A stretch of DNA of 64,000 bases from Methanobacteriota archaeon (GCA_043799545.1 JAZDNO010000005.1:649-64648), one strand, 5' to 3'. Shown: positions 22,562-38,993, counted from the stretch's first letter. The notes: generated from the sequence alone by a model not told the origin. Numbers and translations: made by a program.

Positions 22562-25500
22562 TCAATCGGTTTTTCTGCGTTCGCGCTTGAAAAATATCAT
22601 CGATGCCGAAATTATGAAACACGCTGGAACGAAAATCGTATCGTATTCCGGTATCACCAGGCTTGCCGCATCCTCCGAGCCCGAGAGCAATCTTCCCGTC
22701 GAACTCGTATAGTTCAACCGTGCGAGATTATCGATGATACCACTCTGCGCGGTCGCGTTAATTTGTATGGTTACCGTGAACGAATGCGGCCCTGGCGCGA
22801 CATTCACGAAGTACCATCCATAGGTCAGACCGCTTGAGCCGGATGGAGCCATGCTCGACGAAACGAATGCCACGCCTTGAGGGAGCGTGTCGTTCACCCA
22901 AACGTTGGCGGCGATCGTGCTTCCCGTATTGTTATAAAATATCGTGTAAGTCACGACGCTCCCCGCGAGTGCCTGAGCGACATCAGCGACCTTGGCTACG
23001 ATAATCGTCGGTCTGGTTGCTGTGATGTTTGCCCAATCCGTGGTTCGAGCAAACCTGCTTCCGAGGGCGTCATTGTAGTCCGCGGTTCCCGTGTTGTTCA
23101 GCGAGGCGCCGTCCGCGATCGACGTGCCCACCCGGACAGTCAAAGACAGGGAATTAACCGTGTCGTGGGCAATCGTGCCGAAGTACCAAGCAACATTTTG
23201 GCCCGCAACGCTTTGCGGTGCTGGGACTGCGCCTTCGAAAGACGCGCCCGCAGGCATCGTGTCGTTGACCCAGACGCGCTTCGCGTTGCCGTCGCCGGTG
23301 TTGTTGAACCATATGGTGTAAGTCACAAGCTCGCCTACCTCGACGGTGGACAAGTTCACGGATTTTTGAACGACGATTATGGGCATCTTGCGTTCATTGG
23401 GGGCACGCCTGGTGGGCCCTTCGGGTACGAGCCATCCGTTGTTGCTGACGTAGAAGTCGTTCGCATCGCTGTCTGTGTCGAGCGGCATGCCGGTGTCCTC
23501 GTGCTTGAACCGGCTCCATGTGCTCCCGGCTGCCACAGATGGGTACGTCGTATCGTCCACCAGCGTACCTCCTGCATCGTAAAGCCTGACCTGTCTGCCG
23601 TTGTCGGGAAACGTATTCTTGGGAACGTCCACTGCAAGATATTCCGTGCCCGAGCCCCAGGCGCCAACTGTCGTCCCAGCGGGATAGGTGTACTGATAGT
23701 TGTTACCCACGCGAATCCTCCAGTCACTGATATCGATTACAGCTGCTGTCGGGTTGCACAATTCGATCCATTCGGTGTTGGGGCGTGTGGATATTTCGTT
23801 TATTACGACGTTGTCTCCGGCGGGAGTTCTCGTATTCGAATCCGATGCGGGTTTGACGGCAGAATCCGAAGCTCCTTGCCAGTTCTCCGCGATGGTAAGC
23901 ACCCTACCATTACTCGTCAACGCGGACCCTGCGAGAATCTCTATGGAACCTCTCGACGCCGCAGCCTTCGCCGCTCCCGCGTAAAGCCAGGATTCAGAGT
24001 TGCCGCCGCACGCGTAAAAGCTGGCGTTTTTCACTCGTCCCCCAGAGCCACGAACCGTGATGGCCCTTTCAGCGCCAAAACCAACCCGGATGGGCACGCC
24101 TGTCGACTGGTCGCCATCGGCATCCAGGTATATCGTGATGACGTCTTCCCCTATCATCGGAGGTAGCGAGACCGGGCCAATGTATATGCTGATGCGGTCG
24201 CCACGGTATTCGACCGGAAAATCAGAGGGGATTGTGGTGTTCAACCAAATGTCGGAACCCTTCGGCCAATCAAGGATTCCGTCCCCGTCCCTGTCTCCGC
24301 TTTCAAAGGTGTCGTTTACCCCGTTGTTGTCGAAGTCCAGGGGGAACGAGTCCGACGAATCCGGCACGCCGTCGAGGTCGCTGTCCACGTCTCGCGGAAG
24401 CGATACTGGCGCGGTTTCAGGTCGTGGCAAAAAAGTTGGGAATTTCGCTCCGCCCAGCGCCCTTCCATCCACATCGAGTTTTACGTATGAGCCGCCCCCA
24501 TAAGAAACGTGAGAAAAGCCAACCAAATCGACATCCGGGCAATAGAACGGGTCGCGCTCGTCCAAAAAGACGTCCCCCGATGGCAGGGAAACCGGAATGA
24601 TATCGTCCCAATCCGAGAGATATCCGTCTATTGCGAACCCCGAGCCTCTCATTTTATGCACGAAGGGTTCGGAATCGATGACTGTCAATCCAACGTCGTC
24701 CAAGCTTACGCTCGCCATCTCCACAGATAGGCCGCCATCCGACGTGGAAAGGTTCCCTCGGAATTTGATGACCACAGTAGAATCGGAGGGTATGTCCAAA
24801 TTCCCGACGAAGAACCGCGCAATCGAATCGTTCACAAAGATGGGGTCGATTACGGAGTTATCGATTTCAAGCCAAGGCGTTCCGACCAAGGCGGCTGAGG
24901 TCAGTCCCGATCCCTCGAACGCCAGTTCGAAACCGCCTTCCACGTCGCCGCTGCTGAACAATTCGCACTCGAGAAGTGTGCTGGGCCCAGAATCAACGGA
25001 AGGCAGACCAGCGAATGAGCGGCAAAACGTCTTCGACGGCGTCCCCGAAAGCGGACAGTCGAGGACATCCTTGCCTCCGGCGCCGTCAGTGGCGGCGATT
25101 ATGCAGCGAATTTGAGGTGAGAAGCCGATAATCGAAGCCTTGCACTCCACCATCGGACCCTCCGATGCCAGGTTTATTGAGGTCGGGCAGCCGAAACCGT
25201 TCCAATCGTCCCGCTCGGCGTTCGAATCGAACCGTTTCAAGACGCGGGTCGCCGCATTTCCATCATACCCCATTGCCTCTACGAGATAATCGGCTCCGAT
25301 TCCGTAAATCGGATAGCCGGTTTGCGCATCTCCGTCGGAATCAATTAACGCGTAGATGGCCGAAGCGGTATTTCGCACCCGAGGCGTATCCGTAAAAACG
25401 TTGCCCCGCATCAAGACGAATAATGAAACGGTATCACCTTCGCAAATCATCCCGCCCTGCACAATGTCGCTGCTCTCCGAAGGGCAATCGCCTGGCAAAT

Positions 25501-27484
25501 CGTTGACGACGTAGGGGGCCGTCCACTCACCGAAGCGTCCGTCGATACCATTGTTCGAAGATGTGGGGGCGAACATGCTTGAGATTAGGGGCACGGTCAG
25601 AAGAGCCAGCACACACGCGGAAATTAGCAGGGTCGCCACCCAAACGCGCTGCGTCTCCGAGCGCAGGTATCGCCTGCTCGTTTTGTAATCAGCGAGCCCA
25701 TTGGTCATTCCCGTCCCGTTTACAAGGCCACGGAAGTCTGATAAATCAGCGAGCCCATTGTTAAGCCCATTTGTGCGACCCAGCCCGTTTGACAGGCCAT
25801 TCGTTCTCCCGAGCCCGTTGGTACGCCCCCGCAATCCGTTGGTCAAACCGTTGGTAAGGCCGTTGGTGCGCCCTCGCAACCCATTCGTGAGGCCGTTGGT
25901 CCTTCCTCTTCCAGCGCCGTTGACGGGCCCTCCAGGTTTTGCATCCAAGCCGTTGGTACGCCCCGGCCCCGCGGCTCGCGCCGCCTCGAACTCCTTTCTC
26001 ACGACCGCCTCGATGAGTTCTCCGTTGGTCAATCCGACAGCCTTGCCGCGTACGAGCCCGTTCGCCAACCCCCGCTTGCGCCCCTCGGGCGAATCGTGAC
26101 GCTTGCGCTCCCCGGCCTTCTGCTTATCGGCGCCCAGAGCCTTCTTGAACGCTTCCAGGTCATGCAAGAGTTCCCCGCTTTCCTCGCGCTCCTCGACCTC
26201 GTTTATCGCCTCCTCTGCGATGGTCATGAGGATGTCCAGTTCCTCCTCTTCCACGCCAAGGCCGCAAATGGGGCATATCCCCGCCTCGTCCAGAAATGCG
26301 CCGCAGCGCTGACACGAATTCTCGTCCAGAAGCTTGGCAAGAGCGGCCAGCCCGTCCAGCTCCCTCTCGACGGATTGGGAATCGACCGTTGCGCTCCGCT
26401 GGGTTCCGCATATCGGGCATGTTGGCTTTTGGCTGCTCACGAAAGCCCCGCAATCCGGGCACATCTCAAGGTCGCCTGCGGGCACAGTCTCGAGTTTGTC
26501 CTCGTGCAAGACCCTTTTTAATATCGTTGACATCTCTGCCGGGTCGAGCCTCGCACCGCAAATCATGCAATTGGGGCGTCCCTTGTCAACAAAGGCGCCG
26601 CAACCGGGGCACACGCCGATGTCCATCGCGGTTGTCTGAAGCACATCCCTGAGCTTGTTTGGCGTTGACGCATCCCTCGACTTGTCCTTGCCGCAGTTCG
26701 GGCATGCCGAGGCGCTCGCCGAAATCATGGCGCCGCAGTTCGCGCATAGGTCCGGCGTCTCGATTTCGATGAGGGGCGTCTCCTCGCGTGCCGTCCCGTC
26801 AATTGCTGGTTTGCCTCCGCACAGCGGGCACGACCCCTTTCCGATTGTGAAGAACGAGCCGCATTCGGCGCAAACAGTGACTGACGGTAGCTCCTCCTCA
26901 TCCAGGTCCAACTCTTCATTCTCGGCGAGGAATTCTAGTATGACGCCAGCCGCATCCGCAATCTTCGGGACGCTGCTTTTCATGCGGCCGCTCGTCGCGT
27001 GGAACGACGAATCCACGACAACGATGAGCATGGCGCCCGTCTTTTGGGCTTTCCCCGTCATGGATTTGGCAATTTCCAGGAGGTCTTCACCCTCGCCGAA
27101 AGTCGCCAGCGCTGCGGGGATGACGTCCGCGATTATCAGGAGATTCTCTTTGCCCTTCCAGGACCGAAGGATTTTGTTGAGGGCGACCTTGACATTCAGC
27201 AGGTCTCGGGCACACCGCGTTACCACATCTCCCGCCTCCACCCCGATTACCCTCTCTGTGTTGTGGGAATACCAGTCTATGACCTTCAGCCGTCCATCCG
27301 CAACTGCCACTATTTCCGGTTCGAGGAGGTCGTCCGGGGGCAATCGCGACGTGATGACTGCGACGTGCCATTTTGACGGGATGGCCAGGGAAAGAAGCTC
27401 CCTGGCGAAGATCGCGAAGCCACCTGCCTGGTCTATCTCGACTGAAAGGACAGGTCTCGATTCGCTCCTTTCTTTCTCGCTCAT
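22562..27484 (-). CDS. Giant (1640 aa) type-I-like membrane protein 1: cytoplasmic zinc-ribbon arrays, TNGL repeats, one TM, extracellular TSP3/LTD/DUF11 domains, C-terminal PEF-CTERM-like anchor.
   Basis: Cytoplasmic part: an N-terminal alpha/beta domain without Walker A, five CxxC…CxxC zinc ribbons, and (G)RTNGL tetrapeptide repeats. TM helix VWVATLLISACVLALLTVPLI. Extracellular part: Asp-rich Ca-binding TSP3-like motifs (DVDSDLDGVPDSSD…DRDGDGILD), one lamin-tail domain (NVVINEISTRPNTEWIELCNPTAAVIDISDWRIRVG), two DUF11-type repeats (VTYTIWFNNTGDGNAKRVWVNDTMP). The C-terminus PEYDTIFVPACFIISASMIFFKRERRKTD is a PEF-CTERM-like signal. The start is 1 nt after the stop of the upstream KaiC gene. 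Confidence 0.75.
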   Translation of the reverse strand: MSEKERSESRPVLSVEIDQAGGFAIFARELLSLAIPSKWHVAVITSRLPPDDLLEPEIVAVADGRLKVIDWYSHNTERVIGVEAGDVVTRCARDLLNVKVALNKILRSWKGKENLLIIADVIPAALATFGEGEDLLEIAKSMTGKAQKTGAMLIVVVDSSFHATSGRMKSSVPKIADAAGVILEFLAENEELDLDEEELPSVTVCAECGSFFTIGKGSCPLCGGKPAIDGTAREETPLIEIETPDLCANCGAMISASASACPNCGKDKSRDASTPNKLRDVLQTTAMDIGVCPGCGAFVDKGRPNCMICGARLDPAEMSTILKRVLHEDKLETVPAGDLEMCPDCGAFVSSQKPTCPICGTQRSATVDSQSVERELDGLAALAKLLDENSCQRCGAFLDEAGICPICGLGVEEEELDILMTIAEEAINEVEEREESGELLHDLEAFKKALGADKQKAGERKRHDSPEGRKRGLANGLVRGKAVGLTNGELIEAVVRKEFEAARAAGPGRTNGLDAKPGGPVNGAGRGRTNGLTNGLRGRTNGLTNGLTNGLRGRTNGLGRTNGLSNGLGRTNGLNNGLADLSDFRGLVNGTGMTNGLADYKTSRRYLRSETQRVWVATLLISACVLALLTVPLISSMFAPTSSNNGIDGRFGEWTAPYVVNDLPGDCPSESSDIVQGGMICEGDTVSLFVLMRGNVFTDTPRVRNTASAIYALIDSDGDAQTGYPIYGIGADYLVEAMGYDGNAATRVLKRFDSNAERDDWNGFGCPTSINLASEGPMVECKASIIGFSPQIRCIIAATDGAGGKDVLDCPLSGTPSKTFCRSFAGLPSVDSGPSTLLECELFSSGDVEGGFELAFEGSGLTSAALVGTPWLEIDNSVIDPIFVNDSIARFFVGNLDIPSDSTVVIKFRGNLSTSDGGLSVEMASVSLDDVGLTVIDSEPFVHKMRGSGFAIDGYLSDWDDIIPVSLPSGDVFLDERDPFYCPDVDLVGFSHVSYGGGSYVKLDVDGRALGGAKFPTFLPRPETAPVSLPRDVDSDLDGVPDSSDSFPLDFDNNGVNDTFESGDRDGDGILDWPKGSDIWLNTTIPSDFPVEYRGDRISIYIGPVSLPPMIGEDVITIYLDADGDQSTGVPIRVGFGAERAITVRGSGGRVKNASFYACGGNSESWLYAGAAKAAASRGSIEILAGSALTSNGRVLTIAENWQGASDSAVKPASDSNTRTPAGDNVVINEISTRPNTEWIELCNPTAAVIDISDWRIRVGNNYQYTYPAGTTVGAWGSGTEYLAVDVPKNTFPDNGRQVRLYDAGGTLVDDTTYPSVAAGSTWSRFKHEDTGMPLDTDSDANDFYVSNNGWLVPEGPTRRAPNERKMPIIVVQKSVNLSTVEVGELVTYTIWFNNTGDGNAKRVWVNDTMPAGASFEGAVPAPQSVAGQNVAWYFGTIAHDTVNSLSLTVRVGTSIADGASLNNTGTADYNDALGSRFARTTDWANITATRPTIIVAKVADVAQALAGSVVTYTIFYNNTGSTIAANVWVNDTLPQGVAFVSSSMAPSGSSGLTYGWYFVNVAPGPHSFTVTIQINATAQSGIIDNLARLNYTSSTGRLLSGSEDAASLVIPEYDTIFVPACFIISASMIFFKRERRKTD

Positions 27485-27485
27485 G

Positions 27486-28187
27486 TCAGAATATTACCTC
27501 TTCCGAATCGACTTCCATTCCACCTGGCGCTATCATGAATGGGTGTTTGTAGGGGTCGTGCCTCGTGAATCGCATTTTATAAACGGTCAGCGTCCTCCTG
27601 TACTCCCCCTTCACGTTCTCGTAGCCCAGCAAAATCATCGAGTCAGCAATGAACGGTTCCGCACTTGATCGCGTGGCTCCCCCGGCCGTGGCCTCGGCTA
27701 TGAGCAGCGAAGTGAGTCCGGAGGCCTTCAATCCCCTGCAAAATTTGAAAAGGTCGCGCCTGTATTCCTCGTCTGTCTGGTAGTTCAGAGCCACTGCGGA
27801 TAGCGAGTCCACAACCAGCCGCTCCGCCTTCGAGGTTTTCCTCAGTTGCAGCGCCGCTTCAAGTAGGGTGGAAAAATCTGCCATGTCTTCGGAATTTGCA
27901 TTGTGGATGCCGGAAGCGACTCTGGCGGCCCCCATATCCAGTATTGTAACGCGCCCCTCTTTTTCAAAGTCGGCCAACTTAATGCCGTACCCGGCGCTCG
28001 CCCGAAGGGCATTTTCCCTGCTCTCCTCGAGCGTGATGAGGACCCCCTTCTCCCCCGCGCACAGGTACTGCATGGCGAGAAGGCTCTTCGCGCTTCCGGC
28101 CGGCCCGCAGACGAGGTTCACCGTACCCTCCGGAAAACCTCCGTCAATCAATTCATCTAACCCGGGCACTCCGCTTTTTATGCGCAA
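27486..28187 (-). CDS. KaiC-like/RecA-superfamily ATPase (single domain).
   Basis: Walker A (GPAGSAKS), the KaiC-like GVPGLDELIDGGFPEG N-terminus, and Walker B (RLVVDSLS). Confidence 0.75.
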   Translation of the reverse strand: MRIKSGVPGLDELIDGGFPEGTVNLVCGPAGSAKSLLAMQYLCAGEKGVLITLEESRENALRASAGYGIKLADFEKEGRVTILDMGAARVASGIHNANSEDMADFSTLLEAALQLRKTSKAERLVVDSLSAVALNYQTDEEYRRDLFKFCRGLKASGLTSLLIAEATAGGATRSSAEPFIADSMILLGYENVKGEYRRTLTVYKMRFTRHDPYKHPFMIAPGGMEVDSEEVIF

Positions 28188-28742
28188 TCAATCCCCTCCC
28201 ACGGTCTTTTCTGAAAACTCGTGATCGTAACCTGCGGAGGTCATCAGCCCGATGGTCGCGCGCCTGCCGAGCCGGGCGACCGAGCCAGCTACCAGAGCTG
28301 TCAAAAGGAGGTCGCGCTCCCTTTCTCCAATAGCCTCGTTCTCATTAAGCGCCTTTAATGCCTGGCTTGCATTCGTGTTCAATAATCTGACGAGCGCCTC
28401 CCAATCCGCCCCCAGCACCCCGGCCAGCCGCTCCAAGAAACCGGCCAGCGCTCCTGGGTGGTTGATGATGGATGATGGTTTGCAGCCAGCTAGGTCTATC
28501 TCAATTTTGACATTGGATGCGACTAGCCTGTACTCGAACGCCTTGCGCCTTCCGGCACGAAGGCGCCTTTCCGCGATGCCTGCGCTCGCAAGAGCCGACA
28601 AATGGGCGACGGCCGTGGCTATGTGCAGGCTCAAATCCTCCGCAATTTCGCTCGCGCTTTTCCACTCGCTGGTCGACAGGGCACCCGCGATGCGCAGACC
28701 TCCCTTGCTGCCTAGGGCGTACAATTTTTCAACAGTGCTCAT
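28188..28742 (-). CDS. Winged-helix (ArsR-like) DNA-binding protein.
   Basis: N-terminal wHTH (LYALGSKGGLRIAGALSTSEWKSASEIAEDLSLHIATAVAHLSALASAGIAERR). The stop abuts the KaiC start. Confidence 0.5.
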   Translation of the reverse strand: MSTVEKLYALGSKGGLRIAGALSTSEWKSASEIAEDLSLHIATAVAHLSALASAGIAERRLRAGRRKAFEYRLVASNVKIEIDLAGCKPSSIINHPGALAGFLERLAGVLGADWEALVRLLNTNASQALKALNENEAIGERERDLLLTALVAGSVARLGRRATIGLMTSAGYDHEFSEKTVGGD

Positions 28743-28842: not shown

Positions 28843-31800
28843 CTAAAACTGTATTTTTCGTCGGATTCTGATTAATACCATTAATGAAGCAAGAATAGTG
28901 AGTGTTGGCACTGCGAAATCACCGAACTCTGGCACGACGACCATTGCCAAATCAGAGCTTCCGGGCAACGACCAACCGTTTGACGTTGTGTAATTGAGAT
29001 CGACAAGGTTGGAGATTATGCCCGACGGGCATGTCGCGTTTACCTGCACGGTGATGGTGAACGAGTATGCGCTAGGGGCAACGTTCGTGAAATGCCAGCT
29101 GTAAGTCAGACCGCTGCTCGACGACGGTGGAACGCTCGCTGACAGATACGTGACGCCGATAGGCAGAGTATCATTTATCCAAACATCCCCGGCGTTTCGG
29201 CTGCCTGTATTGTTATACCATATCGTATAGGTAATCAGGCCGCCCGCCTGCACGTCCGTAACATCCGCAACCTTGGCGACTGTTATCTGTGGGCGCCTGC
29301 AGGTGACGATGGCCGTGTCGGAGCTCGGCGTCATCGGCCTCTGCAGCTGGTCCGAGTAGGCAAGATTCGCCACGTTTGTCAGGACCGTGCCGTCGGCGAC
29401 CGTGGGGGCGATTGTCGCAAATAAGGCGATGGAATTGACAGAATCGTGAATTACATTTGCGAAGTACCAGGTCAGAAGTTGTCCGCTGACGGCTGCCGGC
29501 GCGACGCTGGCGCTGACGTACGTCATGCCCGCTGGTAGCGTGTCGTTCAACCACACGCGCTTCGCATTTCCGTCGCCGGTGTTGTTGTACCAGAGCGTGA
29601 ATGTGACGATGTCGCCGGGCGCTGCCTCGGCCAAAGAGGCCGTCTTTTCAACGCTCATCACCGGGCGCTTGCGGTCGTTAGGCGCCGCCGGAGTCGGCCC
29701 TTCGGGCACCAGCCAGCCGTTGTTGGAGATGTAGAAATCATTGGAATCGACCCCCGTGTCGAGCGGATAGCCCGTGTCCTCGTGCTTGAACCTGGACCAG
29801 GTCTGGGTTGCCAGGATGCCGCCTGGGTAATTGGTCTCGTCTATCGTGGTCCAGAAGAACCCCGTCTGCCTCTGAAGCCTAACCCGGCTCCCCCCATTTG
29901 GGAAGTCGTTGCCACCGCCGGTGTTGGCTACGAAATATTCCGAGCCAGAGCCCCAGGCACCGAGCACAGTGCCAGCCGGGAAGGTGTAGGCGGTTGAGAA
30001 GAAACCCACCCTGATGCGCCAGCCGCTGACGTCGACAGGCGAACCAGTGGGGTTGCACACTTCGACCCACTCGTTGGTGTCCCCCTGGACCGATATTTCA
30101 TTGATGACTATCCTCGACAGCGGATCCGTCACGACGACGGACGCCTGCGCAGTCGTGCGCGGCAGCGACGATCCAGCCAGGTTTTTGTAATCCCCCGTGA
30201 CCGTGTTCGTCAGGACCGTTCCGAGGGGAACCGCACTGCCTATTTGCGCTTGGACAGTTATGAAGTGGTTCCCCGGCGCCACGGCAACGAAGTGCCAGTA
30301 CTGGACTTGACCGGACGTGGCGTTCGGGAGGACGCTCGACGAAACAAAGGTCGTCCCGACCGGGAGAGTGTCGTTGAGCCATACGTGGCCTGCCTCGCCC
30401 GACCCCGTGTTGTTGTAATGTATTGTGTAGGTGATGTCGTCGCCGGGGCTGGGAGTGGGCACATCGACGACCTTCGCGACGGCGATGGATGGGGACGGCG
30501 CCGAAACGACGATGGTCCAGGCGCTGGAAGATGACGGCAGCTGGCGGGATGATTGGTCCGTGTAGGCGAGGGCCGCGACGTTGATGAGAGCCGTTCCGAC
30601 CGGCGTTGATGATGGAATGTGGGCGACCAGCGTCAGGAAATGAGCTCCTGGCGCCACGCTCGTGAAATACCAACCGTATGTCTGCCCCGCGACGGACACG
30701 TATGGTGTGCTGGACGAAACGTAGGTCATTCCGACGGGAAGCGTGTCGTTGAGCCAGACGTGCGCCGCGTTGCGGCTTCCTGTGTTGTTGTAATGGATGG
30801 TATAGGTGACGTCGTCCCCCGGCGCGGCTATGGAAAGGTCGGCGATCTTGACGACGGTTATCTGGGGCCGAACGCAAGTCACAGCCACAGCGTCCGAACT
30901 GGACGCCATCGGCCTGCGAAGCTGGTCCGAGTATGCCAGGCTCGCCGAGTTGGTGAGGACCGAGCCATCGACGACGGACAGATCGATGGTGGCGGAGACG
31001 CTGAGGGAGTTGACCGTGTCGTGGATCACGTTGGCGAAGTACCAGGTGAGCAGCTGGCCGTTTATCGAAGATGGGGCGACGCTGGCGCCAGCGTACGTCA
31101 TGCCCGTCGGCAGCGTGTCGTTGAGCCACACGTTCTTCGCGTTACCATCGCCTGTATTGTTGTACCACAGGGTGAACGTCACCAGGTCTCTGGGAGCCCC
31201 TTCAGGGGCGTTGCTCGATTTCTCGATGGCCATCACCGGGCGACTTCTGTCGTTGGGCGCGCCCCTCGTCGGCCCCTCGGGCACAACCCAGCCATTGTTC
31301 GAGATGTAGAAATCATTGGCGTCGTTGTTCGTGTCGACCGGCTGCCCGGTTTCCACATCCTTGAAGCGTGACCACGTCTGCCCGTTGACCGTCGCTGGGT
31401 AATTGGACCTGTCGATTTCGGCGCCGGTGCCCGTGGTCAGGCGGACGACGCCTCCCGCGTCTGGAAACCGGTTGTTCTGTGTCATGGTGGCAACTAGGTA
31501 TTCCGAACCCGAGCCCCAAGCTCCGATGGCGGTTCCCACAGGGAACGTGTACCTGAGTTGGTTGCCGGAATAGATGCGCCAGCCGCCTATGTTTATCGCA
31601 GAGCTTGTGGGGTTGCAGAGTTCGACCCACTCCGGGTTGGGCCTGGCTGCCAGCTCGTTTATTACTATCCTCGATGCGGGCGACGCGACCGTGACGGAAA
31701 CTTGCGATACTGTGGGCGGCAGCGAGACGCCCGCAGAGTCCTTGAATGCGCAAGTGACGAGGTTTGTCAGAATGGTTCCGGGCGCGACGCCAGCGCCCAC

Positions 31801-34800
31801 CTGTGCAGACAAGGTGACCTGGTAATTCCCCGGCGCGACATTCAGGAAGGACCAGAAGACGTTTTGGCCCGCGACGGTCGCGGGTGGTGGGGTGGCCGAG
31901 ACGTACGACATCCCGACAGGCAACGTGTCATTCAGCCAGACGTTCGAGGCCGTGCCGTCGCCGGTATTGTTGTAATATATCGTGAAATCGACGTAATCGC
32001 CTGGCGATGGCGTTGACGATAGGGCGACTTTTTTTACGGTTATCGACGGAAGAGGCGCCTGCACGGTCACAGTCCAGCTGTCTGTCGATGTGCCCAGGAA
32101 CCTCGAGAGCTGGTCGGTGTACTGAAGCTGGACGTTGTTGACGAGGACGGTTCCGCTCGTGACACCAGCATTAACGGTGGCGCTCACGGTGAACGAGTGC
32201 GTTCCCGGCACGACATTGTTGAAATACCAGCGGTAAGTCTGACCCGCGAAAGAGGCGTAGGGTACGCTTGAGGCGGAGTAGGTCGTGCCCGCCGGGAGCG
32301 TGTCGTTGACCCAAACGTGGCGCGCGTTGCCGTCGCCGGTATTGTTGTAGTAGATTGTGTAAACAATGGCCCCACCAGGCGGGGCTGTGACCCTGTCGCC
32401 CGCCTTGTCCACAGCAATCATCGGCGCGGTCCTGTCGTTGGGCGCCCTGAAGGTCGGCGAGTCAGATATGTAGTAGTCACCGACGGTGTCGGTGTCCATC
32501 GGCATCCCCCAAGTCGCGTTCTTGAAGCGTGCCCAGCTCTGGCCGGCGAGGAGCGCTCCGTATGTGAAGGAATCGACAGTGGCCCACGTCCCGGCCACTT
32601 GAAGGAGTATTGTCGCGCCGCCGTTGGGCAGCTCGTTCCCGTTTCCGTAGAACGTGGCGGCATAGTATTCGGTTCCCGAGCCGAACGCCCCCAGGATTGT
32701 GTTGGCGGGGAAAACGAACAGGTTCGAGCTCCCCATCCTCAGGCGCCAGCCGCCTATGTTTATCGGGGATGAAGTCGGGTTGCAGAGCTCTATCCACTCG
32801 CCGTTGTTCGGCAAAACCACAATCTCGTTTATCACTACGTTGTCCCCCGCGGGAGAGCGCGTCTGAGACACGAAGACTGAAGTCGAGAGCGCCCCGTCGC
32901 TCACATCCGAGCTTCCGTCTGAATCGCGCATCTCAACCGTCACCGCGGTCTGCGGTCCCACGAGCCATTGGGGCAACCGCCCCTCGAACCGCCAGAGGTC
33001 GTTGCCCACCGGAACATCCGGGTCAGTCTCCCTCCAGGGAATCCGGCCTTGGCCCGGGTCGTATGCCGCGAGGGAAGTTCCCAGAACAATCCCGCCCCGC
33101 CCCGTCACTACCAGGGCGTGGTCGGCTCCCAGCCCGCCTGGTACTCGCGCACCGGTCGAAGCGTTTCCGTCTGAGTCAATCCACAGCAGTAGCGAGTCCT
33201 CGCCGAGCCTCTCGCGCTCCCTTTCCGTGACTGGTCCGACATAGACGCCGGATGATACGTTCGCGAAAGGAGCGGGGAAATCGACTGGCGTGGTTGCGTT
33301 CAGCCACAGGTCGGGGCCGTAAGGATATTCGACGAGCCCGTCCCCGTCCTTATCGCCGTCCTCCATGGCATCGTTCACGCCGTCGTTGTCGAAATCGAAT
33401 GGCATGGGGTCCTGTCCGTTGGGCACGCCATCCATGTCGTTGTCGGAAGCGTTCCAGTCTGGTGCCGGAGCTGGGCTCCCGCCTTCCCTCCTGATGGAGT
33501 ACCTCGGGAAAGCCGAACCCCCTAGGGCTGTGCCCGAGACCTGCACGAAGAACTCGCCGCTGTCCAGCAAGGCTGACGAGACGAGGTCGACGTTCCGGTT
33601 CTCCAGCAGCCCGTTACCCAGGGTAGTCGTCACGTCACCAAGCGAATCGGGGGACTTGGGCACCCCGTTCCAGTCCGCGAAAGCGCCGTCGATGTGCACA
33701 TCCGTCCAAAGACCGAGGGAAATCGTCGATGGGGCGAGTTTCGAGATGTGCACGTCGCCCGCCTCCGCGCGCACGATGCGGCTCAGGGTCAGGCCAGTTG
33801 TGTTCGGCAAAACAGCGCCCTGGCCCGCACTGCCAGCAATGGTAATATTTACGACTTCGTCTTCCGCTAGGGCCAATGGCAGAGCGAACGTGATACCTAG
33901 GATGGCGTTGCTCTGGGACTGCGTGAATGCGAGGGGCTCGATCGCCCCGCCAGCGCGAATTGCCGCTATCGAAGAGACGGAAGTGGCGTCGGGGGCGTTG
34001 CCAATGCGCGTCAGCTCCAATCCCATGATGGAGGAAGCACCGCCAGAAGAATGCACCGTCACACGCTGCACCTCGAGCACTCCAGGTTCGGACAAAGACT
34101 CCGATTCCGGGCCGCGCTCGAAGGCTTTTGCCACCGCCAGGCCAGGGGACACCGGGGACTCGGCCATGTCCTGATAGCCGGAGCCGTCGCTCGTGCAGAC
34201 CAGCACCAGCGGCGAGGTGGCATTCGAGGGCAGAAACGCCTCGACCTCGACTTCAGAGTTCGAGACTGCAACGTTCGCCGCCGCGCCCGAGTCGAACCCG
34301 AGCCAGTTGGTCCTGTTCTTCGATCGGTCGAAAGCCCTCAGGACGGCGCCCCCGTCCCCGCGCCACCCGGAAACGTCAAGCAGATAGTCGGCACCAATAG
34401 AACCGATAGAATAACCCGTTAAAGCGTTCCTGTCCGCGTCGATGAATGCATACATGGACGCAGTGGAGTTCAGCTCGGGAGTATGCTGGCCGGCAAGGGC
34501 GCTCCCTCTCACCGAAGCATAAACGAAGAGCTTCTGGTTTTCATAACCAAGTTTAATCTGGTCGATTACAACATCGGCGTTCGCAGATGCGGGCGTGAGC
34601 GCATTGCGGTACCCGGCGACGTTCTCCCAGTCACCGAAGTATCCGTCCACGGAAAGCGTCGTGGCCCTGGGCTTTCCGAGGTCCAGCATGGGGGAGAACA
34701 TCATGAGAGCCACCGCAAGGGCCATGAGCCCGGCCATCCAGTGCCACTGGTTCCGCTGCTCATCCCTTCTCCGGTAAGGTGCAGGAGCGGTTCCGTTGAT

Positions 34801-37341
34801 GAATCCCGTGCCGTTTATCAGGCCGATGCCGTTGACGAGCCCGGCGCCGTTCACAAGGCCCTGGCCGTTCGTGAGGCCGCCCGAATATCCGAGGCCATTG
34901 ACCAGCCCGTTGACCTTGCCCCGTCCGTTGACAAGACCGTTGATGCGGCCGTTGGTCCTGCCACGGCCATTGACCAGCCCGTTAATCCTGCCGTTGGTCT
35001 TGCCGCGCCCGTTGACCATGCCATTGACTCGGCCATTGGTTCTGCCTCGTGCCAAACCGTTAACCATTCCGCCCACGGGCTTTCCCCTCTGACCCTGGGG
35101 CGTGCTGGAAACGCGAGATTTCGGTTGCTGCCCCGGCATGACTGCGGCCGTGGCCGGCTCCGTAAGCTCGCTGATTCGCTCGTACGACAGCCTTATCGCT
35201 TCATGGAACGACCTGGTGGCTTCGGCGCTCTGACCCCGCTTCTGCAACAGTTCCCCCCTCTCTTGCCAGAGTCTGTCGTTTTTCGGGTCGTTTTTAAGGG
35301 ATTCCTCTATGAACCAAAAGCGCGCGTCGAGATTCTCCAGGTCTCTGGACATCTCCTCCTCGTCGACCGCCCCCCCGGCGTCGCGCATCTTGGCAATCAA
35401 TTCCAGAGCTCTGGCCCGGTAATCTGTTTCGCGCTCCGGAGACAGTTCCGCGGCCTTGTCGAAGCAATGCATGGCTTCGTCCAGTTGCTCCGACGCCATC
35501 ATGGATACGCCGCGCTGGAACCAGTCGTCGGACGTCTTCGGCTCTTCGCTATTGGGCTCGGGCTTCGCTTCGCCGGGCAGTGTCTCTTTCTCTACTTTTT
35601 TCGTTACTGGCTTTGTTGTGGCGGTCACTTCGGCTTCCGGGGCGCCCATGCCGGACCAGCGCTGTATGAAATCCTTTGAAATGCCTCGCCTCTTGGATGA
35701 CGTATCTTGCCTCGACGTGTCTGGAACCTTCCCGTCCAGCTTCGCCGTGAGCTTGCTGATGCGGCAATCCAGGCACAGGCTCTCGCCCTCCTTGACACGT
35801 TTGCCGCAGACCTCGCAACCGCGCTCTAGCTCATTCTTTGCCAGCACTTCAACCAGTCGGCTACTTTCCCGTGTGCGCTCCCTGGCGGCGGGGGCGGTCT
35901 TCCCGCCCATGCCGATGGCATATTCCAGGGCTCCGCAGACGTTGCAGTATTCGCCCTCCCCCTCGTAGCCGTCCCCGCAAGTCTTACAGGTCTTCCCCGC
36001 CGGATGGCAAGCCGGGCATGCTGCACCGGCTGCTGTGATGGGCTTACCGCAGTCTGGACACAATGGTGGGGACGGTTCAGGGATGTTTATTTCCGGGGCG
36101 GGTCGGGCTATCTCTGTCTGGCTGAAATCCGCGCCGCAAGCCTGGCACCGGCTGGCCTTTTCCGAAAGGAAGGCTCCGCAGTCCGGGCAGAGGTATAACT
36201 CGACCGGCTCCTCTTCCTTCTCTGCGGGAGCCTTCTCGACGAGCGGCATCTCGACGCCGTCGTCGGGCTCGAAGACTGCTCCGCAGCTAGGGCATTTGTC
36301 CGCGCCTTCCGCAGCCAGCGAGCCGCAACCTGGGCAAATGAAGAGCGACTTTTTGTCCTTGTACCAGAACCCGTCCACATCCTTGCCAGCATCAGCCCCG
36401 GGTTCGGTTTTCTCGATTAGCGGCAGTTCGACCTGCTCATCATCGACGAATTCAACCCCGCACTTGGGGCACAGCTTCGAGCCGGCGGCGGCAAGCGAGC
36501 CGCAACCCGGGCACAGGAACAAGCTCGCACCAGCCTTGTACCAGTGACCGTCGACGTCCCCTTTGTCCTTGACCTCTGGACCGCTGGTAGTTTGCTGGGT
36601 CTCCATCTCCAAAGGCATCTCCACGGCTTCTTCTTCGACGAAATGGGCGCCGCAGCGCGGGCATCCCTTCGAGCCAGCAGCTGCCAGAGAGCCGCACGAC
36701 GGGCATAGGAAAAGTTTCGCCTCATCCTTGTACCAGAATCCGTCTTCCGCATCCTCTTTCTTGGTTTCCAAAGGAACCAATGGAATGTCCACCGTTTTTT
36801 CGTCCGGTTCGAAAACCGCTCCGCACGACGGACATTTTTGCGCATCCGCAGCCGCAAGAGATCCGCATGATGGACAAAGGAAGAGCTTTGCCTCGTCCTT
36901 GTACCAGAATCCGTCATGCGCTTTTTCTTCAATCTTGTCGGGCTCGGTTTCAAGCGGAAGCTCGACCTCGTCCCCTTCCTCGAAGTGCACGCCGCACTTG
37001 GGGCAGCTCGCCGCCCCAGACGATGCCAGGGAACCGCAGGCCGGGCATATGAAAAGGCTGGATTTTCCACTCGACCACCAGCTATCTGCTTCTTCTTTGG
37101 GCTTCTCTGCGCCGATGGCCTCCTTGGCCGCCTTGATGACGTTGTCCGCAAGCGCCAGGCCCATGCCGCCCACTTGTGCCAGGTCTTCGCGGTTGGCTGC
37201 GGCGATGTCGTCCAGAGTCTTGAACCCGGCGCCCTCCAACGCCTTGGCCCTCGATTTGCCCACGCCGGGCAGGGTTGTGAGCTTCCTTGTGGATTTGTCT
37301 TTCGACATCACCCATTCTATATTGGTCTCTATATAAACCAA
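28843..37341 (-). CDS. Giant (2832 aa) membrane protein 2, a paralog of giant protein 1: HhH, six zinc-ribbon repeats, VNG(L/R) repeats, TM, extracellular TSP3/three LTD/many DUF11 repeats, PEF-CTERM.
   Basis: Cytoplasmic part: N-terminal HhH pair (TLPGVGKSRAKALEGAGFKTLDDIAAANREDLAQVGGMG), six near-identical units DGFWYKDEAKLFLCPSCGSLAA…KCPSCGAVFEPDE, further Cys clusters, TPR-like helices, and VNG(L/R) repeats. TM helix MAGLMALAVALMMF. Extracellular part: a TSP3-like DNDMDGVPNGQD…DKDGDGLVE motif, three lamin-tail domains (e.g. RIVINELAARPNPEWVELCNPTSSAINIGGWRIYSG), at least eight DUF11 repeats (IVYTIYYNNTGDGNARHVWVNDTLP). The C-terminus VVVPEFGDFAVPTLTILASLMVLIRIRRKIQF is a PEF-CTERM signal. 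Confidence 0.8.
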   Translation of the reverse strand: MVYIETNIEWVMSKDKSTRKLTTLPGVGKSRAKALEGAGFKTLDDIAAANREDLAQVGGMGLALADNVIKAAKEAIGAEKPKEEADSWWSSGKSSLFICPACGSLASSGAASCPKCGVHFEEGDEVELPLETEPDKIEEKAHDGFWYKDEAKLFLCPSCGSLAAADAQKCPSCGAVFEPDEKTVDIPLVPLETKKEDAEDGFWYKDEAKLFLCPSCGSLAAAGSKGCPRCGAHFVEEEAVEMPLEMETQQTTSGPEVKDKGDVDGHWYKAGASLFLCPGCGSLAAAGSKLCPKCGVEFVDDEQVELPLIEKTEPGADAGKDVDGFWYKDKKSLFICPGCGSLAAEGADKCPSCGAVFEPDDGVEMPLVEKAPAEKEEEPVELYLCPDCGAFLSEKASRCQACGADFSQTEIARPAPEINIPEPSPPLCPDCGKPITAAGAACPACHPAGKTCKTCGDGYEGEGEYCNVCGALEYAIGMGGKTAPAARERTRESSRLVEVLAKNELERGCEVCGKRVKEGESLCLDCRISKLTAKLDGKVPDTSRQDTSSKRRGISKDFIQRWSGMGAPEAEVTATTKPVTKKVEKETLPGEAKPEPNSEEPKTSDDWFQRGVSMMASEQLDEAMHCFDKAAELSPERETDYRARALELIAKMRDAGGAVDEEEMSRDLENLDARFWFIEESLKNDPKNDRLWQERGELLQKRGQSAEATRSFHEAIRLSYERISELTEPATAAVMPGQQPKSRVSSTPQGQRGKPVGGMVNGLARGRTNGRVNGMVNGRGKTNGRINGLVNGRGRTNGRINGLVNGRGKVNGLVNGLGYSGGLTNGQGLVNGAGLVNGIGLINGTGFINGTAPAPYRRRDEQRNQWHWMAGLMALAVALMMFSPMLDLGKPRATTLSVDGYFGDWENVAGYRNALTPASANADVVIDQIKLGYENQKLFVYASVRGSALAGQHTPELNSTASMYAFIDADRNALTGYSIGSIGADYLLDVSGWRGDGGAVLRAFDRSKNRTNWLGFDSGAAANVAVSNSEVEVEAFLPSNATSPLVLVCTSDGSGYQDMAESPVSPGLAVAKAFERGPESESLSEPGVLEVQRVTVHSSGGASSIMGLELTRIGNAPDATSVSSIAAIRAGGAIEPLAFTQSQSNAILGITFALPLALAEDEVVNITIAGSAGQGAVLPNTTGLTLSRIVRAEAGDVHISKLAPSTISLGLWTDVHIDGAFADWNGVPKSPDSLGDVTTTLGNGLLENRNVDLVSSALLDSGEFFVQVSGTALGGSAFPRYSIRREGGSPAPAPDWNASDNDMDGVPNGQDPMPFDFDNDGVNDAMEDGDKDGDGLVEYPYGPDLWLNATTPVDFPAPFANVSSGVYVGPVTERERERLGEDSLLLWIDSDGNASTGARVPGGLGADHALVVTGRGGIVLGTSLAAYDPGQGRIPWRETDPDVPVGNDLWRFEGRLPQWLVGPQTAVTVEMRDSDGSSDVSDGALSTSVFVSQTRSPAGDNVVINEIVVLPNNGEWIELCNPTSSPINIGGWRLRMGSSNLFVFPANTILGAFGSGTEYYAATFYGNGNELPNGGATILLQVAGTWATVDSFTYGALLAGQSWARFKNATWGMPMDTDTVGDYYISDSPTFRAPNDRTAPMIAVDKAGDRVTAPPGGAIVYTIYYNNTGDGNARHVWVNDTLPAGTTYSASSVPYASFAGQTYRWYFNNVVPGTHSFTVSATVNAGVTSGTVLVNNVQLQYTDQLSRFLGTSTDSWTVTVQAPLPSITVKKVALSSTPSPGDYVDFTIYYNNTGDGTASNVWLNDTLPVGMSYVSATPPPATVAGQNVFWSFLNVAPGNYQVTLSAQVGAGVAPGTILTNLVTCAFKDSAGVSLPPTVSQVSVTVASPASRIVINELAARPNPEWVELCNPTSSAINIGGWRIYSGNQLRYTFPVGTAIGAWGSGSEYLVATMTQNNRFPDAGGVVRLTTGTGAEIDRSNYPATVNGQTWSRFKDVETGQPVDTNNDANDFYISNNGWVVPEGPTRGAPNDRSRPVMAIEKSSNAPEGAPRDLVTFTLWYNNTGDGNAKNVWLNDTLPTGMTYAGASVAPSSINGQLLTWYFANVIHDTVNSLSVSATIDLSVVDGSVLTNSASLAYSDQLRRPMASSSDAVAVTCVRPQITVVKIADLSIAAPGDDVTYTIHYNNTGSRNAAHVWLNDTLPVGMTYVSSSTPYVSVAGQTYGWYFTSVAPGAHFLTLVAHIPSSTPVGTALINVAALAYTDQSSRQLPSSSSAWTIVVSAPSPSIAVAKVVDVPTPSPGDDITYTIHYNNTGSGEAGHVWLNDTLPVGTTFVSSSVLPNATSGQVQYWHFVAVAPGNHFITVQAQIGSAVPLGTVLTNTVTGDYKNLAGSSLPRTTAQASVVVTDPLSRIVINEISVQGDTNEWVEVCNPTGSPVDVSGWRIRVGFFSTAYTFPAGTVLGAWGSGSEYFVANTGGGNDFPNGGSRVRLQRQTGFFWTTIDETNYPGGILATQTWSRFKHEDTGYPLDTGVDSNDFYISNNGWLVPEGPTPAAPNDRKRPVMSVEKTASLAEAAPGDIVTFTLWYNNTGDGNAKRVWLNDTLPAGMTYVSASVAPAAVSGQLLTWYFANVIHDSVNSIALFATIAPTVADGTVLTNVANLAYSDQLQRPMTPSSDTAIVTCRRPQITVAKVADVTDVQAGGLITYTIWYNNTGSRNAGDVWINDTLPIGVTYLSASVPPSSSSGLTYSWHFTNVAPSAYSFTITVQVNATCPSGIISNLVDLNYTTSNGWSLPGSSDLAMVVVPEFGDFAVPTLTILASLMVLIRIRRKIQF

Positions 37342-37402: not shown

Positions 37403-38032
37403 TCATTGCCAAAAAAGTGTAACGTACGGGTTCAAGCCGAACCGCAACGTCGTCTGCCTGCCCTTCCCCCCGATTATCACGTAGACCTCCGCGGGATCGC
37501 TCTTAATCACCTTTGGCTGGAGACCCAGGACGGAAAGCTTCGAAAGGGTCCCGTCCAGCAGGCCCTTTCTGCGGTCAAGGTAGGCCTCTCCGGAATTGGA
37601 CAGCAGCTCGGAAGGGTAGTACCTCACGCTCCGCCCGTCGCGCGAAGTTAGGGCCAGCCCAAGCTTTCCGAGGTCCCGCAGAACCCTCGAGACCGATTGC
37701 CTCGAAGAGCCGAGCTTCAGGGCAAGTCCGTCTTGGGCGAGCCCGGGATTGGTAATCACCTCTCTCAGCGCGGCCCTCCTATCCTCATTGGCGAGGAAGG
37801 CGAAAATCTCGAATTCCTCATCCCTCAGCATCCCGACCGGATAATACGCGGCGTGGCCCTTGAAATTGCGCGCCGCCAGCAGTTCGGCCTTGGCGAGCTT
37901 CCTCAGGTGCCATTTAATCGATGCTGGGGACAGCGACATGGCGCTTGCGATTTGAGACCTGATGGAGCATGGCCTGTGCGAAAGGAACGAAAGGACTTCC
38001 GCGTCGTTCTCCGACATGGCAAGCCCGCGCAT
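37403..38032 (-). CDS. Transcriptional regulator with two winged-helix (MarR/ArsR-like) domains.
   Basis: First domain: VLSFLSHRPCSIRSQIASAMSLSPASIKWHLRKLAKAELL. Second domain: LREVITNPGLAQDGLALKLGSSRQSVSRVLRDLGKLGL. Confidence 0.55.
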   Translation of the reverse strand: MRGLAMSENDAEVLSFLSHRPCSIRSQIASAMSLSPASIKWHLRKLAKAELLAARNFKGHAAYYPVGMLRDEEFEIFAFLANEDRRAALREVITNPGLAQDGLALKLGSSRQSVSRVLRDLGKLGLALTSRDGRSVRYYPSELLSNSGEAYLDRRKGLLDGTLSKLSVLGLQPKVIKSDPAEVYVIIGGKGRQTTLRFGLNPYVTLFWQ

Positions 38033-38105: not shown

Positions 38106-38993
38106 TCACCCCGCCTTGTACTCAGCCGCTATGTCTTCCAACAAATCCTCCGGGTCAACGCTCTTAAGGTCCGAATCCCGAACCTCCGCCAGAGCCTTCT
38201 CAATCCTGTCCCGGACCTCCTTGGGAAGCAACGGCGAAATCCTTCCGAGCCCTTCCATGAGCTGGGTGGAAACCCGGTGCTCGTCCCTGACGGGCTCGCC
38301 TCCCCGGGCGACCACGATGCCGAGCCCCTTAATTATGCTGTACGGATGCGACCGCTCGCTGTGCCTGCTGTTCCTGCACTTGACTATCTTGAACCTGCGC
38401 TCGGCGCCTTCGTCCAGCGCCCTGTACCTCAGGTGGATGACGCAATCGGCCAGATACATCGGGATGACCGTCTCGTTTCCGGTCAGGTCGCTCGCCGACC
38501 CGTGCTCCTCCAAGGTCGCCAGTACCGTTCCCACCTTTCGGGTCTCTTTGAGCATGAAACCGATGAGGTCCCGCTGCTCGTATCGGTCTGCGTTCGCCCA
38601 AAGCACGGGCGTGAGCGGGTCGACGACGATTCGGGCGTTCGCCCCCTTCCAATCCTCGACGAAGGAGGGCAGCTCCTTCTTGATGAACGTCGCAAAGTCT
38701 CGCCCAGAGGCGTCTATGAAAACGAGCTGCTCGCGCTCGATGTATTCGAGGATTTCGCCCCACCCCATCTCGATGGCCTCTTTGATTATCTGCTCCTTGT
38801 TCTCGTCGAGGCTCACGAAGATGCCTTCCTGTCCCTCCTCCAGTCCCCTGCGGATGAATTGCGTTGCGAGGGTTGTCTTGCCCGCGCCGGAGGCCCCGAT
38901 GACGACTGTGGTGGAACTCTCGTTGATGCCGCCGTCGATGAGCGCGTTCAGGCCGTAGACTCCGCTTCTTATTTTGCGCATCCGCTTTACCAA
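38106..38993 (-). CDS. KaiC-like/RecA-superfamily ATPase with a C-terminal extension.
   Basis: Walker A (GASGAGKTT), the GVYGLNALIDGGINES N-terminus, Walker B (RIVVDPLT). Confidence 0.75.
   Translation of the reverse strand: MVKRMRKIRSGVYGLNALIDGGINESSTTVVIGASGAGKTTLATQFIRRGLEEGQEGIFVSLDENKEQIIKEAIEMGWGEILEYIEREQLVFIDASGRDFATFIKKELPSFVEDWKGANARIVVDPLTPVLWANADRYEQRDLIGFMLKETRKVGTVLATLEEHGSASDLTGNETVIPMYLADCVIHLRYRALDEGAERRFKIVKCRNSRHSERSHPYSIIKGLGIVVARGGEPVRDEHRVSTQLMEGLGRISPLLPKEVRDRIEKALAEVRDSDLKSVDPEDLLEDIAAEYKAG

Follow-up and report, generated by a model that had tools for sequence, protein, structure and literature searches.

Giant surface proteins with a predicted cytoplasmic tail in Thermoplasmata archaea, and their conserved linkage to genes for KaiC-like ATPases

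Introduction

Archaea possess few classical two-component systems, and KaiC-like ATPases have been proposed to fill this gap; to our knowledge, no membrane receptor is known to feed them. These ATPases, together with their inactivated forms, have been put forward as hubs of archaeal signal transduction (Makarova et al. 2017, cited in PMC5847659), and the inactivated class had earlier been noted in archaeal signalling proteins, as related in the part of PMC5847659 that cites Makarova et al. 2017. Here we describe a locus in a 64,000-nucleotide stretch of DNA, referred to throughout as the window (GCA_043799545.1 JAZDNO010000005.1:649-64648, deposited as a Methanobacteriota archaeon), in which two very large genes, Giant 1 and Giant 2, each stand on the minus strand in a cassette with genes for a KaiC-like ATPase and a winged helix-turn-helix (wHTH) protein. 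As in the proposed hubs, a stand-alone KaiC-like ATPase adjoins a wHTH output protein and a protein bearing an inactivated KaiC (iKaiC) domain, whereas the putative input is a bitopic giant of the cell surface, whose ectodomain measures 1,000-1,900 amino acids (aa), and not a small cytoplasmic sensor. The cassette is known from sequence alone, and a related architecture may already be present in Makarova et al. 2017. A first-pass annotation of the window had singled out Giant 2 for its domain architecture, and overlooked both cassettes, the iKaiC identity of the Giant 1 N-terminus and the large size of the family to which the giants belong.

The predicted arrangement of the giants recalls RsgI-type anti-sigma factors of Clostridium thermocellum, in which a cytoplasmic regulator-binding N-terminus is joined through one transmembrane (TM) helix to an extracellular carbohydrate-binding module. 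The likeness extends to the predicted N-in orientation, the single TM helix, the CBM-like putative sensor outside the cell and the pairing of the tail with a transcription factor encoded by an adjacent gene. However, the giants are unrelated to RsgI in sequence, their partner, in place of a sigma factor, is a wHTH protein with a RecA-superfamily ATPase, and their ectodomain is far larger and carries a second, C-terminal anchor. In this last respect they resemble archaeosortase substrates, which Haft et al. reportedly described in 2012 as bearing PEF-CTERM or PGF-CTERM tails; ArtC has been assigned to the PEF-CTERM class (PMC9723798, PMC5244752). Both have a tripartite C-terminal signal on large surface proteins, conserved across the family in the case of the giants, whose tails nevertheless score below the cutoff of the curated model TIGR03024, and which would begin with a cytoplasmic tail of up to ~1,000 aa and a signal anchor instead of a cleavable signal peptide. 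Long repeat-rich, membrane-bound surface proteins are also known from the same archaeal class in the form of the adhesin-like proteins of Methanomassiliicoccales, which carry Flg_new repeats and are thought to form surface fibrils (PMC10673518, PMC9723798); the giants carry lamin-tail domains (LTD), DUF11 and CBM9-like modules in place of Flg_new, and neither a large cytoplasmic domain nor a linkage to KaiC has been described for the adhesin-like proteins. Methanomethylophilus alvi, a relative in culture, is bounded by a single membrane with neither wall nor S-layer, and bears fibrils of up to 300 nm on its surface (PMC10673518).

Gene cassettes and the inactivated KaiC domain

The genes concerned are the following, in their order along the minus strand.

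38106..38993, minus strand: KaiC-like ATPase 1 (KaiC1), 295 aa, Walker A GASGAGKT (Pfam KaiC PF06745, E 2.2e-38, 132 bits)
37403..38032, minus strand: double winged-helix (ArsR/MarR-type) regulator, 209 aa (Pfam HTH_24, MarR and HTH_5 in two halves)
28843..37308, minus strand: Giant 2, 2,821 aa (Pfam and NCBIfam domains in one frame)
28188..28742, minus strand: ArsR-type HTH protein, 184 aa (HTH_20, ArsR/SmtB)
27486..28187, minus strand: KaiC-like ATPase 2 (KaiC2), 233 aa, Walker A GPAGSAKS (Pfam KaiC, E 1.1e-49, 169 bits)
22562..27484, minus strand: Giant 1, 1,640 aa, with iKaiC, five zinc ribbons, NG repeat, TM helix, modules A and B, LTD, two DUF11 and a PEY tail
26915-27484, minus strand: iKaiC domain of Giant 1, aa 1-190 (hhalign)
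25694-26068, minus strand: NG repeat of Giant 1, a repeat also present in L013, L005 and P0028

Cassette 1 thus runs KaiC1, double-wHTH regulator, Giant 2, and cassette 2 runs ArsR-type HTH protein, KaiC2, Giant 1. In the latter the genes practically abut, with no nucleotide between the HTH stop and the KaiC2 start and a single one from the KaiC2 stop to the Giant 1 ATG. Both ATPases exceed the PF06745 cutoff (KaiC1 also matches NCBIfam KaiC_arch_3 at 5e-33), and the Walker A motif of KaiC2 is atypical. Scores of the neighbours on KaiC-family models far exceed those on RadA recombinase models. The double-wHTH regulator is recognised by the NCBIfam ArsR/SmtB model in two stretches, and its homologues sit between KaiC1 and the giant in six loci. 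The protein collection searched has no entry identical to Giant 2 or to the 184-aa HTH protein. A known defence system was considered and set aside, PADLOC having returned nothing beyond generic wHTH matches and a single weak P-loop match.

Neither cassette is peculiar to the window. Cassette 1 is found in eight genomes (the window and loci L006, L007, L008, L014, L018, L019 and L024), among which KaiC1 is 57-67% identical and the regulator and giants ~27-34%. Cassette 2 occurs in four independent contexts (the window, L013, L055 and L058/L059); in L058/L059 it lies between two giants, as in the window, and in L013 the KaiC2 homologue, 44% identical, holds the same position. When the 20 loci nearest to Giant 2 are considered, 13 retain at least 1.3 kb of upstream sequence, and a KaiC cassette is present in eight of these, namely the seven cassette-1 loci and L013 with cassette 2. 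Beyond KaiC-like and wHTH genes, no neighbour family recurs. The cassettes conservedly link a KaiC-like ATPase with putative input and output components, in the manner of a KaiC-centred signalling module.

The connection to KaiC extends into Giant 1 itself. The first-pass annotation had noted that Giant 1 follows the same logic as Giant 2, with a different N-terminal alpha/beta domain lacking Walker A, and both observations hold: the plan is shared between the two proteins, and GK[ST] is absent from the domain. Comparison of the family of this domain with the KaiC family by hhalign gives a probability of 97.6% (E 3.7e-12), the P-loop is lost while the Walker B Asp is retained, and the precomputed Pfam KaiC annotation (PF06745) falls on the N-termini of two other family members, P0134 and P0171. 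On these sequence grounds we identify the domain as an inactivated KaiC domain. Relatives of it are found in nine other family members. Taken alone, the Giant 1 domain gave no match in Pfam, NCBIfam, a phmmer search of the PDB or a BLAST comparison with KaiC2.

Architecture of Giant 2

The minus-strand frame at 28843..37341 comprises 2,832 codons and is open throughout, with domain matches that stay in frame along its whole length, in agreement with its earlier description as one polypeptide. Its upstream limit is a TTG at 37341. Translation probably begins at the ATG at 37308, which yields a protein of 2,821 aa beginning MSKDKSTRK, because the helix-hairpin-helix (HhH) domain then lies ~8 residues from the N-terminus and homologues begin ~8-10 residues before it. 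In order, the protein has an (HhH)2 domain, nine zinc ribbons, a tetratricopeptide repeat (TPR) region, a basic xNGx repeat, a TM helix, an ectodomain of ~1,920 aa and a tail of PEF motif, TM helix and basic residues. The parts are as follows.

37120..37287, minus strand: (HhH)2 domain, aa 8-63 (Pfam HHH_5, E 2.7e-13)
35764..37047, minus strand: nine CxxC-x10-CxxC zinc ribbons, aa 88-515 (Cys count; DZR/Zn_ribbon families above their cutoffs)
35641..35679, minus strand: GISKDFIQRW motif, aa 544-556 (shared by cassette-1 giants)
35185..35526, minus strand: TPR region, aa 595-708 (TPR_2, 35.3 bits, cutoff 27; also TPR_9 and TPR_17)
34789..35067, minus strand: basic xNG(R/L) repeat, 17 units, aa 748-840 (unit count, TRF)
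34684..34740, minus strand: predicted signal-anchor TM helix, aa 857-875 (Kyte-Doolittle 1.85)
34144..34656, minus strand: module A, CBM9/DOMON-like beta-sandwich by model, aa 885-1055 (IDGxFxDW ... DxDxxxxTGY ... GADY)
32875..33699, minus strand: module B, second copy of module A, aa 1204-1478 (matched by the module A hidden Markov model, HMM)
33337-33444, minus strand: Asp-rich DxDxDG insert in module B, aa 1289-1324 (DNDMDG...DFDNDG...DKDGDG, by eye)
28954..32856, minus strand: stalk, LTD-2 DUF11-LTD-3 DUF11-LTD-2 DUF11 (Pfam, TIGR01451, motif positions)
28846..28941, minus strand: C-terminal PEF motif, TM helix and RIRRK (sequence, hydropathy)

Much of the first-pass description of the N-terminal part is borne out, including the HhH pair, the TPR-like helices and the VNG(L/R) spacer. 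The solved chains nearest to the (HhH)2 domain are the N-terminal extension of haloarchaeal eL32, the N-terminal domain of RadA/Rad51 and domain 5 of Hel308, and the DNA-binding (HhH)2 of Topo V is also close; RadA/Rad51 is a recombinase of the same ATPase superfamily as KaiC. The HhH is kept at the N-terminus of cassette-linked giants. The ribbons had been put at six tandem units plus further Cys clusters; their presence is confirmed and their number becomes nine, made up of five related tandem units (G[F/H]WYK precedes four of them), a sixth that is similar and three more, which together account for 36 Cys, with hardly any Cys elsewhere. The TPR region has homologous counterparts in related giants.

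Between the ribbons and the TPR lies a short motif, G(I/F)(S/T)KDF(L/I)xRW, that is found in seven of the eight giants with KaiC1 and the wHTH gene upstream (the window, L006, L007, L008, L014, L019 and L024), is retained even in giants without HhH and with few or no zinc ribbons, and is present in two copies in the database fragments P0001 and P0002. We regard it as a candidate docking peptide. The (V/T)NG(R/L/K) repeat, in which TRF detects a 42-nucleotide period with 3.3 copies in Giant 2, varies from 0 to about 34 units among family members and, where present, always stands just ahead of the signal anchor. A topogenic or spacing role is possible, and the basic repeat may prolong the positive-inside signal for an anchor that emerges only after hundreds of residues.

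The heads of the giants differ among loci. The cassette-1 giant of L024 (2130-6146, plus strand) has no HhH and begins KKELMSLMKSDLINVANEYGIKVKGYWNKVKICDMI, a stretch that by eye resembles the SAP/Rho-N helix-extension-helix (HeH) DNA-binding motif and hints at the swapping of small DNA-binding-type heads.

On the other side of the membrane, aa 876-1480 are made up of modules A and B on either side of a beta-rich domain, the ~170-aa module having had no annotation in either copy. Module B is a diverged copy of module A, and the two are always paired and beside the membrane. An AlphaFold2 (AF2) model of module A alone, built from a 51-sequence alignment (predicted local distance difference test, pLDDT, 91), has a fold similar to the CBM9/DOMON-like type, with Foldseek giving the same top two; identity to CBM9 of Thermotoga maritima Xyn10A (1i82) and DOMON-like domains is ~15%, and the pairing near the membrane is a feature of the giants. 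A model of the whole 612-aa module region from seven sequences reached a pLDDT of only 48 and was discarded. The module region has no Pfam match and no PDB profile match, and does not belong to the CBM9 family by sequence. The residues invariant in it (D-G-x-F-x-x-W; DxDxxxxTGY; GA[DE]) have the look of structural or Ca-binding positions, and binding of sugars or glycans by module A is therefore a lead suggested by the modelled fold rather than a result. The Asp-rich insert, confined to the two window giants in an alignment of the module region, had been likened to a Ca-binding thrombospondin type-3 motif. That assignment is not borne out by Pfam, which finds nothing at aa 1289-1324 even at E<=10 (only a chance-level DUF7327 appears on aa 876-1480), and the spacing was seen by eye only.

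The stalk, whose LTD and DUF11 units are Ig-like, agrees with the earlier account in its three lamin-tail domains (PF00932, E 9.8e-38, 129 bits against a cutoff of 34.3, three stretches, at about aa 1479-1625, 1870-2020 and 2399-2545). For DUF11, where at least eight repeats had been counted, an array is clearly present and its units number seven, whether by PF01345 (E 8.8e-72, 239 bits against 24.6, seven stretches), by TIGR01451 (268 bits, seven stretches) or by '[YW]NNTG' units; one DUF11 unit additionally matches a model of an isopeptide-forming pilin domain. The extracellular region is large, as had been stated, at ~1,920 aa in place of the ~2000 given before.

Membrane topology and the C-terminal tail

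The segment at aa 857-875 is the sole clearly hydrophobic internal segment of Giant 2, and the N-terminus is not hydrophobic, so that a single N-proximal TM helix and the absence of an N-terminal signal peptide both stand as first proposed; the corresponding helix of Giant 1 is at aa 616-634. In the 121 family members compared, net charge over the 25 residues ahead of the helix averages +3.8, against -3.2 over those that follow, and the balance is more positive upstream in 120 of the 121. Within the family, Cys make up 2.4% of the cytoplasmic tail and 0.6% of the ectodomain (~fourfold), and in Giant 2 the N-glycosylation sequons are split into 27 after the helix and two before. Given these indicators, together with the missing signal peptide, the 36 zinc-ribbon Cys and the presence of an ATPase-type domain at the same place in the paralogue, the N-terminal ~850 aa of Giant 2 are very probably cytoplasmic, as the first-pass annotation had predicted.

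The C-terminus of Giant 2, VVVPEFGDFAVPTLTILASLMVLIRIRRKIQF, consists of a PEF motif, a TM helix (aa 2795-2813, Kyte-Doolittle 1.89) and a basic end (RIRRKIQF), and thus has the tripartite PEF-CTERM shape. The same tail, 'IPEF(S/G/D)xxxxP' followed by a TM helix and R/K, ends about three quarters of 150 family representatives. The PEF-CTERM end proposed earlier accordingly stands in shape and conservation and falls short of the curated definition: Giant 2 scores 9.2 bits against a TIGR03024 cutoff of 23, and Giant 1 and nine other family tails are also below 23, with 16.9 bits the best. No archaeosortase was found among the multi-TM open reading frames (ORFs) of the 64-kb window, which encode a CDP-alcohol phosphatidyltransferase, a Na/H exchanger and an EamA transporter, and no sortase recurs beside family members. 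From its shape, the C-terminus may be processed by an archaeosortase, perhaps with the lipidation that the first-pass annotation proposed, and the giants are predicted to be tethered at both ends, by the signal anchor and by the C-terminal tail, a topology that is unusual among sortase-type substrates.

A large family in Thermoplasmata

A search with the cytoplasmic part matched Thermoplasmata proteins. For the family as a whole we used an HMM of the juxtamembrane region in an exhaustive HMMER search of 1.84 billion representatives clustered at 50% identity, which returned 1,647 clusters at E<=1e-3, of which 566 also pass E<=1e-30; a word-indexed search with the ectodomain module had found none as a single sequence and two proteins as a profile. 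Among the best 150 hits, 0-7 ribbons and 0-33 NG units precede the TM helix, most members have N-terminal ribbons and/or NG repeats, and the helix lies about 30 aa ahead of 'IDGxFxDW'. In some of these 150 the hydrophobic segment is at residues 1-12, leaving a short N-terminus like that of an ordinary signal peptide. Six proteins (P0021-P0026) reproduce the plan of Giant 2 in miniature, with zinc ribbons, NG repeats, TM helix and PEF, TM and basic tail, and have 'IDGxFxDW' ~30 residues after the helix and again ~285 residues further on. The sequences suggest a common plan of a variable cytoplasmic tail, an xNGx repeat, a signal anchor, two CBM9/DOMON-like modules, a variable stalk and a PEF-type tail. 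Source databases call the members just 'zinc ribbon domain-containing protein'.

Taxonomy was read from loci confirmed by scanning a single genome for each GTDB species, a search that, with its single-sequence query, favours close relatives. All 50 of the 50 confirmed loci come from metagenome-assembled genomes of Thermoplasmata, Thermoplasmatota or Methanomassiliicoccales, a few of them labelled Methanobacteriota, and the best is 59% identical; by this sequence evidence the source organism of Giant 2 is a Thermoplasmata archaeon.

Family members are also carried by the complete metagenome-assembled chromosomes CP070629, CP070736 and CP070751. Much larger members exist, including P0140 of 6,763 aa and, in Methanomassiliicoccales UBA147 and UBA280 (L046, L047), ORFs of more than 4,000 codons that run off their loci. 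Another Thermoplasmata family (P0006-P0020), of ~1,000 aa, combines 7-8 N-terminal ribbons of the same type with 6-8 TM helices and a C-terminal TPR array, and is annotated by its sources only as 'tetratricopeptide repeat protein' or 'RPABC4/Spt4'.

The component parts (zinc ribbons, HhH, TPR, LTD, DUF11, KaiC-like ATPases and PEF-type tails) are already known. Of further interest in the family are a new paired CBM9-like module, the conserved basic xNGx repeat beside the membrane and a PEF-type tail missed by current models. In the literature we found no description of a family with paired CBM9-like modules, xNGx repeat and PEF-type tail, nor of the predicted topology with anchors at both ends, nor of the coupling of a giant to KaiC and wHTH genes or the iKaiC fusion, the architectures of Makarova et al. 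2017 not having been compared.

What might the giants do?

We propose that the giants are surface adhesins or receptors of N-in/C-out topology whose cytoplasmic tail docks a module of KaiC-type ATPase and regulator, and we put the probability of this reading at roughly one half. Docking is suggested by the fusion of iKaiC to one giant beside a stand-alone KaiC gene, by the near-abutting junctions and by the deeply conserved gene order. The first-pass annotation had envisaged a large nucleic-acid- or protein-binding intracellular module; given the cassettes, the iKaiC identity and the size of the family, the protein-binding half of that proposal, in a docking or signalling role, is favoured over generic nucleic-acid binding.

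Under this proposal, the tail would have grown into a docking platform in the sub-clade that holds both window giants, built in Giant 2 from the RadA-N-like (HhH)2, the zinc-ribbon array, the SKDFxxRW motif and the TPR, and in Giant 1 from the inactivated KaiC and zinc ribbons, and the giant would share a transcript with the genes for a KaiC-like ATPase and a winged-helix regulator. The long ectodomain would project straight from the membrane, given that wall and S-layer are missing from many cultivated Thermoplasmata, and would touch glycans or other surfaces. Its state could be passed through the membrane anchor or anchors to the tail, which would hold or release a KaiC-type ATPase oligomer and its wHTH partner and thereby alter transcription. 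The opposite direction is equally possible, with the ATPase governing the clustering or display of the adhesin from inside. The more specific claim that the giants are the membrane receptors of a new archaeal signalling system, in which the tail gates a KaiC-type oligomer that acts on the winged-helix regulator, is one that we advance tentatively and at short of even odds.

Several points weigh against docking and signalling. The cassettes are limited to a sub-clade, more distant family members having no adjacent KaiC gene, and even an iKaiC-bearing member (L056/L057) is without a neighbouring one. The putative link between tail and KaiC/wHTH proteins draws on gene adjacency, which is also compatible with plain transcriptional control of the giant, and KaiC2 may be an inactive ATPase in view of its atypical Walker A. 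The topology of the giants is read from indirect sequence indicators. Lastly, nucleic-acid binding is also a classical role of HhH domains, zinc ribbons and Arg-rich repeats, and a CBM9/DOMON-like fold does not prove sugar binding.

The alternatives rank in the order in which they follow. The foremost, which we consider unlikely and yet deserving of serious attention, is that the giants are passive envelope proteins or adhesins, forming a structural fibril or coat, with a tail that merely anchors or spaces (for example at the inner membrane face or nucleoid), and that the KaiC-like and wHTH genes control their expression without touching the protein. The typical adhesin and stalk modules of the ectodomain (LTD, DUF11 and the CBM-like fold), the lack of a KaiC neighbour in most family members, the short N-terminus ahead of the TM helix in some and the existence of cultivated relatives with surface fibrils and no S-layer would all fit such a role. 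It accounts less well for Giant 1, where an iKaiC domain fused to the tail, beside a stand-alone KaiC gene and across a 1-nucleotide junction, argues for physical interaction, and a long multidomain tail with parts conserved across ~30%-identical orthologues is hard to explain as an anchor.

The second alternative, which strikes us as improbable, is that two products arise from each giant: the internal helix would be a cleavable signal, signal peptidase freeing an ectodomain anchored at its C-terminus only, and leaving a tail-anchored zinc-ribbon/HhH protein to perform a distinct task in the cytoplasm. In several members the hydrophobic segment does occupy residues 1-12, as a normal signal peptide would, module A always starts ~10 residues past that segment, and small residues directly follow the helix in some members ('LSYS', 'FSLS'). 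However, no good -3/-1 small-residue site is seen by eye in Giant 2 (MMFSPMLDLGKPRA) or Giant 1 ('ISSMFAPTSS'), and a strongly basic repeat uniformly conserved ahead of the helix fits a permanent type II anchor.

More doubtful again is a membrane-tethered DNA device, in which the HhH (SAP-like in L024), ribbons and Arg/Asn/Gly repeats would bind DNA on the inner face of the membrane, and the KaiC-like ATPases would act on it, to tether, import or export DNA at cell contacts made by the ectodomain. Its attraction lies in the closeness of the HhH to the DNA-binding (HhH)2 of RadA/Rad51, Hel308 and Topo V, in the place of KaiC-like proteins in the RecA/RadA superfamily, and in the orthologue that by eye seems to swap its HhH for a SAP/HeH-like motif. 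Yet genes for nucleases, translocase channels or pili are not among the recurrent neighbours of the giants, one TM helix cannot make a DNA conduit, each cassette has a wHTH regulator of the kind typical of regulatory modules, and the neighbours fit the KaiC family far better than they do RadA recombinases.

An artefact, whether by frameshift, chimeric assembly or read-through fusing a zinc-ribbon gene to a surface-protein gene, is effectively excluded even though the nearest database fragments (P0001-P0004) cover the cytoplasmic part only, a mild point as they come from short contigs, since the frame is unbroken with in-frame domains throughout, the same fusion recurs in two adjacent paralogues and dozens of independent assemblies, and at least eight independent loci encode HhH, zinc ribbons, TPR, NG repeat, TM helix, ectodomain and PEF tail in one frame, so that the frameshift or assembly join against which the first-pass annotation had warned was looked for and not found.

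Other features of the window

Just downstream of the giants lies a gene for a DUF7121 protein (21387-22259, plus strand), close homologues of which are likewise placed in L005 (5260-6171) and L006 (9326-10201); local synteny therefore reaches beyond the cassettes. About 7 kb from the cassettes, two convergent genes encode TPR-rich proteins of more than 400 aa (TPR_12, MalT-like) at 44664-45914 (plus strand) and 45911-47233 (minus strand). Two tRNA-Gln(CTG) genes, at 13066-13139 and 16337-16409 (both plus strand), flank a 560-aa ORF at 14534-16216 (plus strand) that, by eye on a short motif, looks like a class I Glx-tRNA synthetase. A duplication at 8-17 kb had been suspected from two ORFs of 560 aa and was rejected, the ORFs being unrelated and the region free of DNA repeats. 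A lone 5S rRNA gene is present at 17015-17136 (minus strand; Rfam, 95.7 bits), and no 16S or 23S rRNA gene was found in the 64-kb window.

Significance

With at least 1,647 clusters at 50% identity, the surface-protein family that the locus defines is very large and has so far gone unannotated, and in cells that have no wall or S-layer the giants may be the main interface with the surroundings. The locus also provides testable candidate receptors, and an iKaiC fusion, near-abutting junctions and deep conservation of gene order usually signal physical coupling. If the proposed coupling is true, it would represent the first concrete wiring from input to output for the proposed archaeal KaiC 'hub' network.

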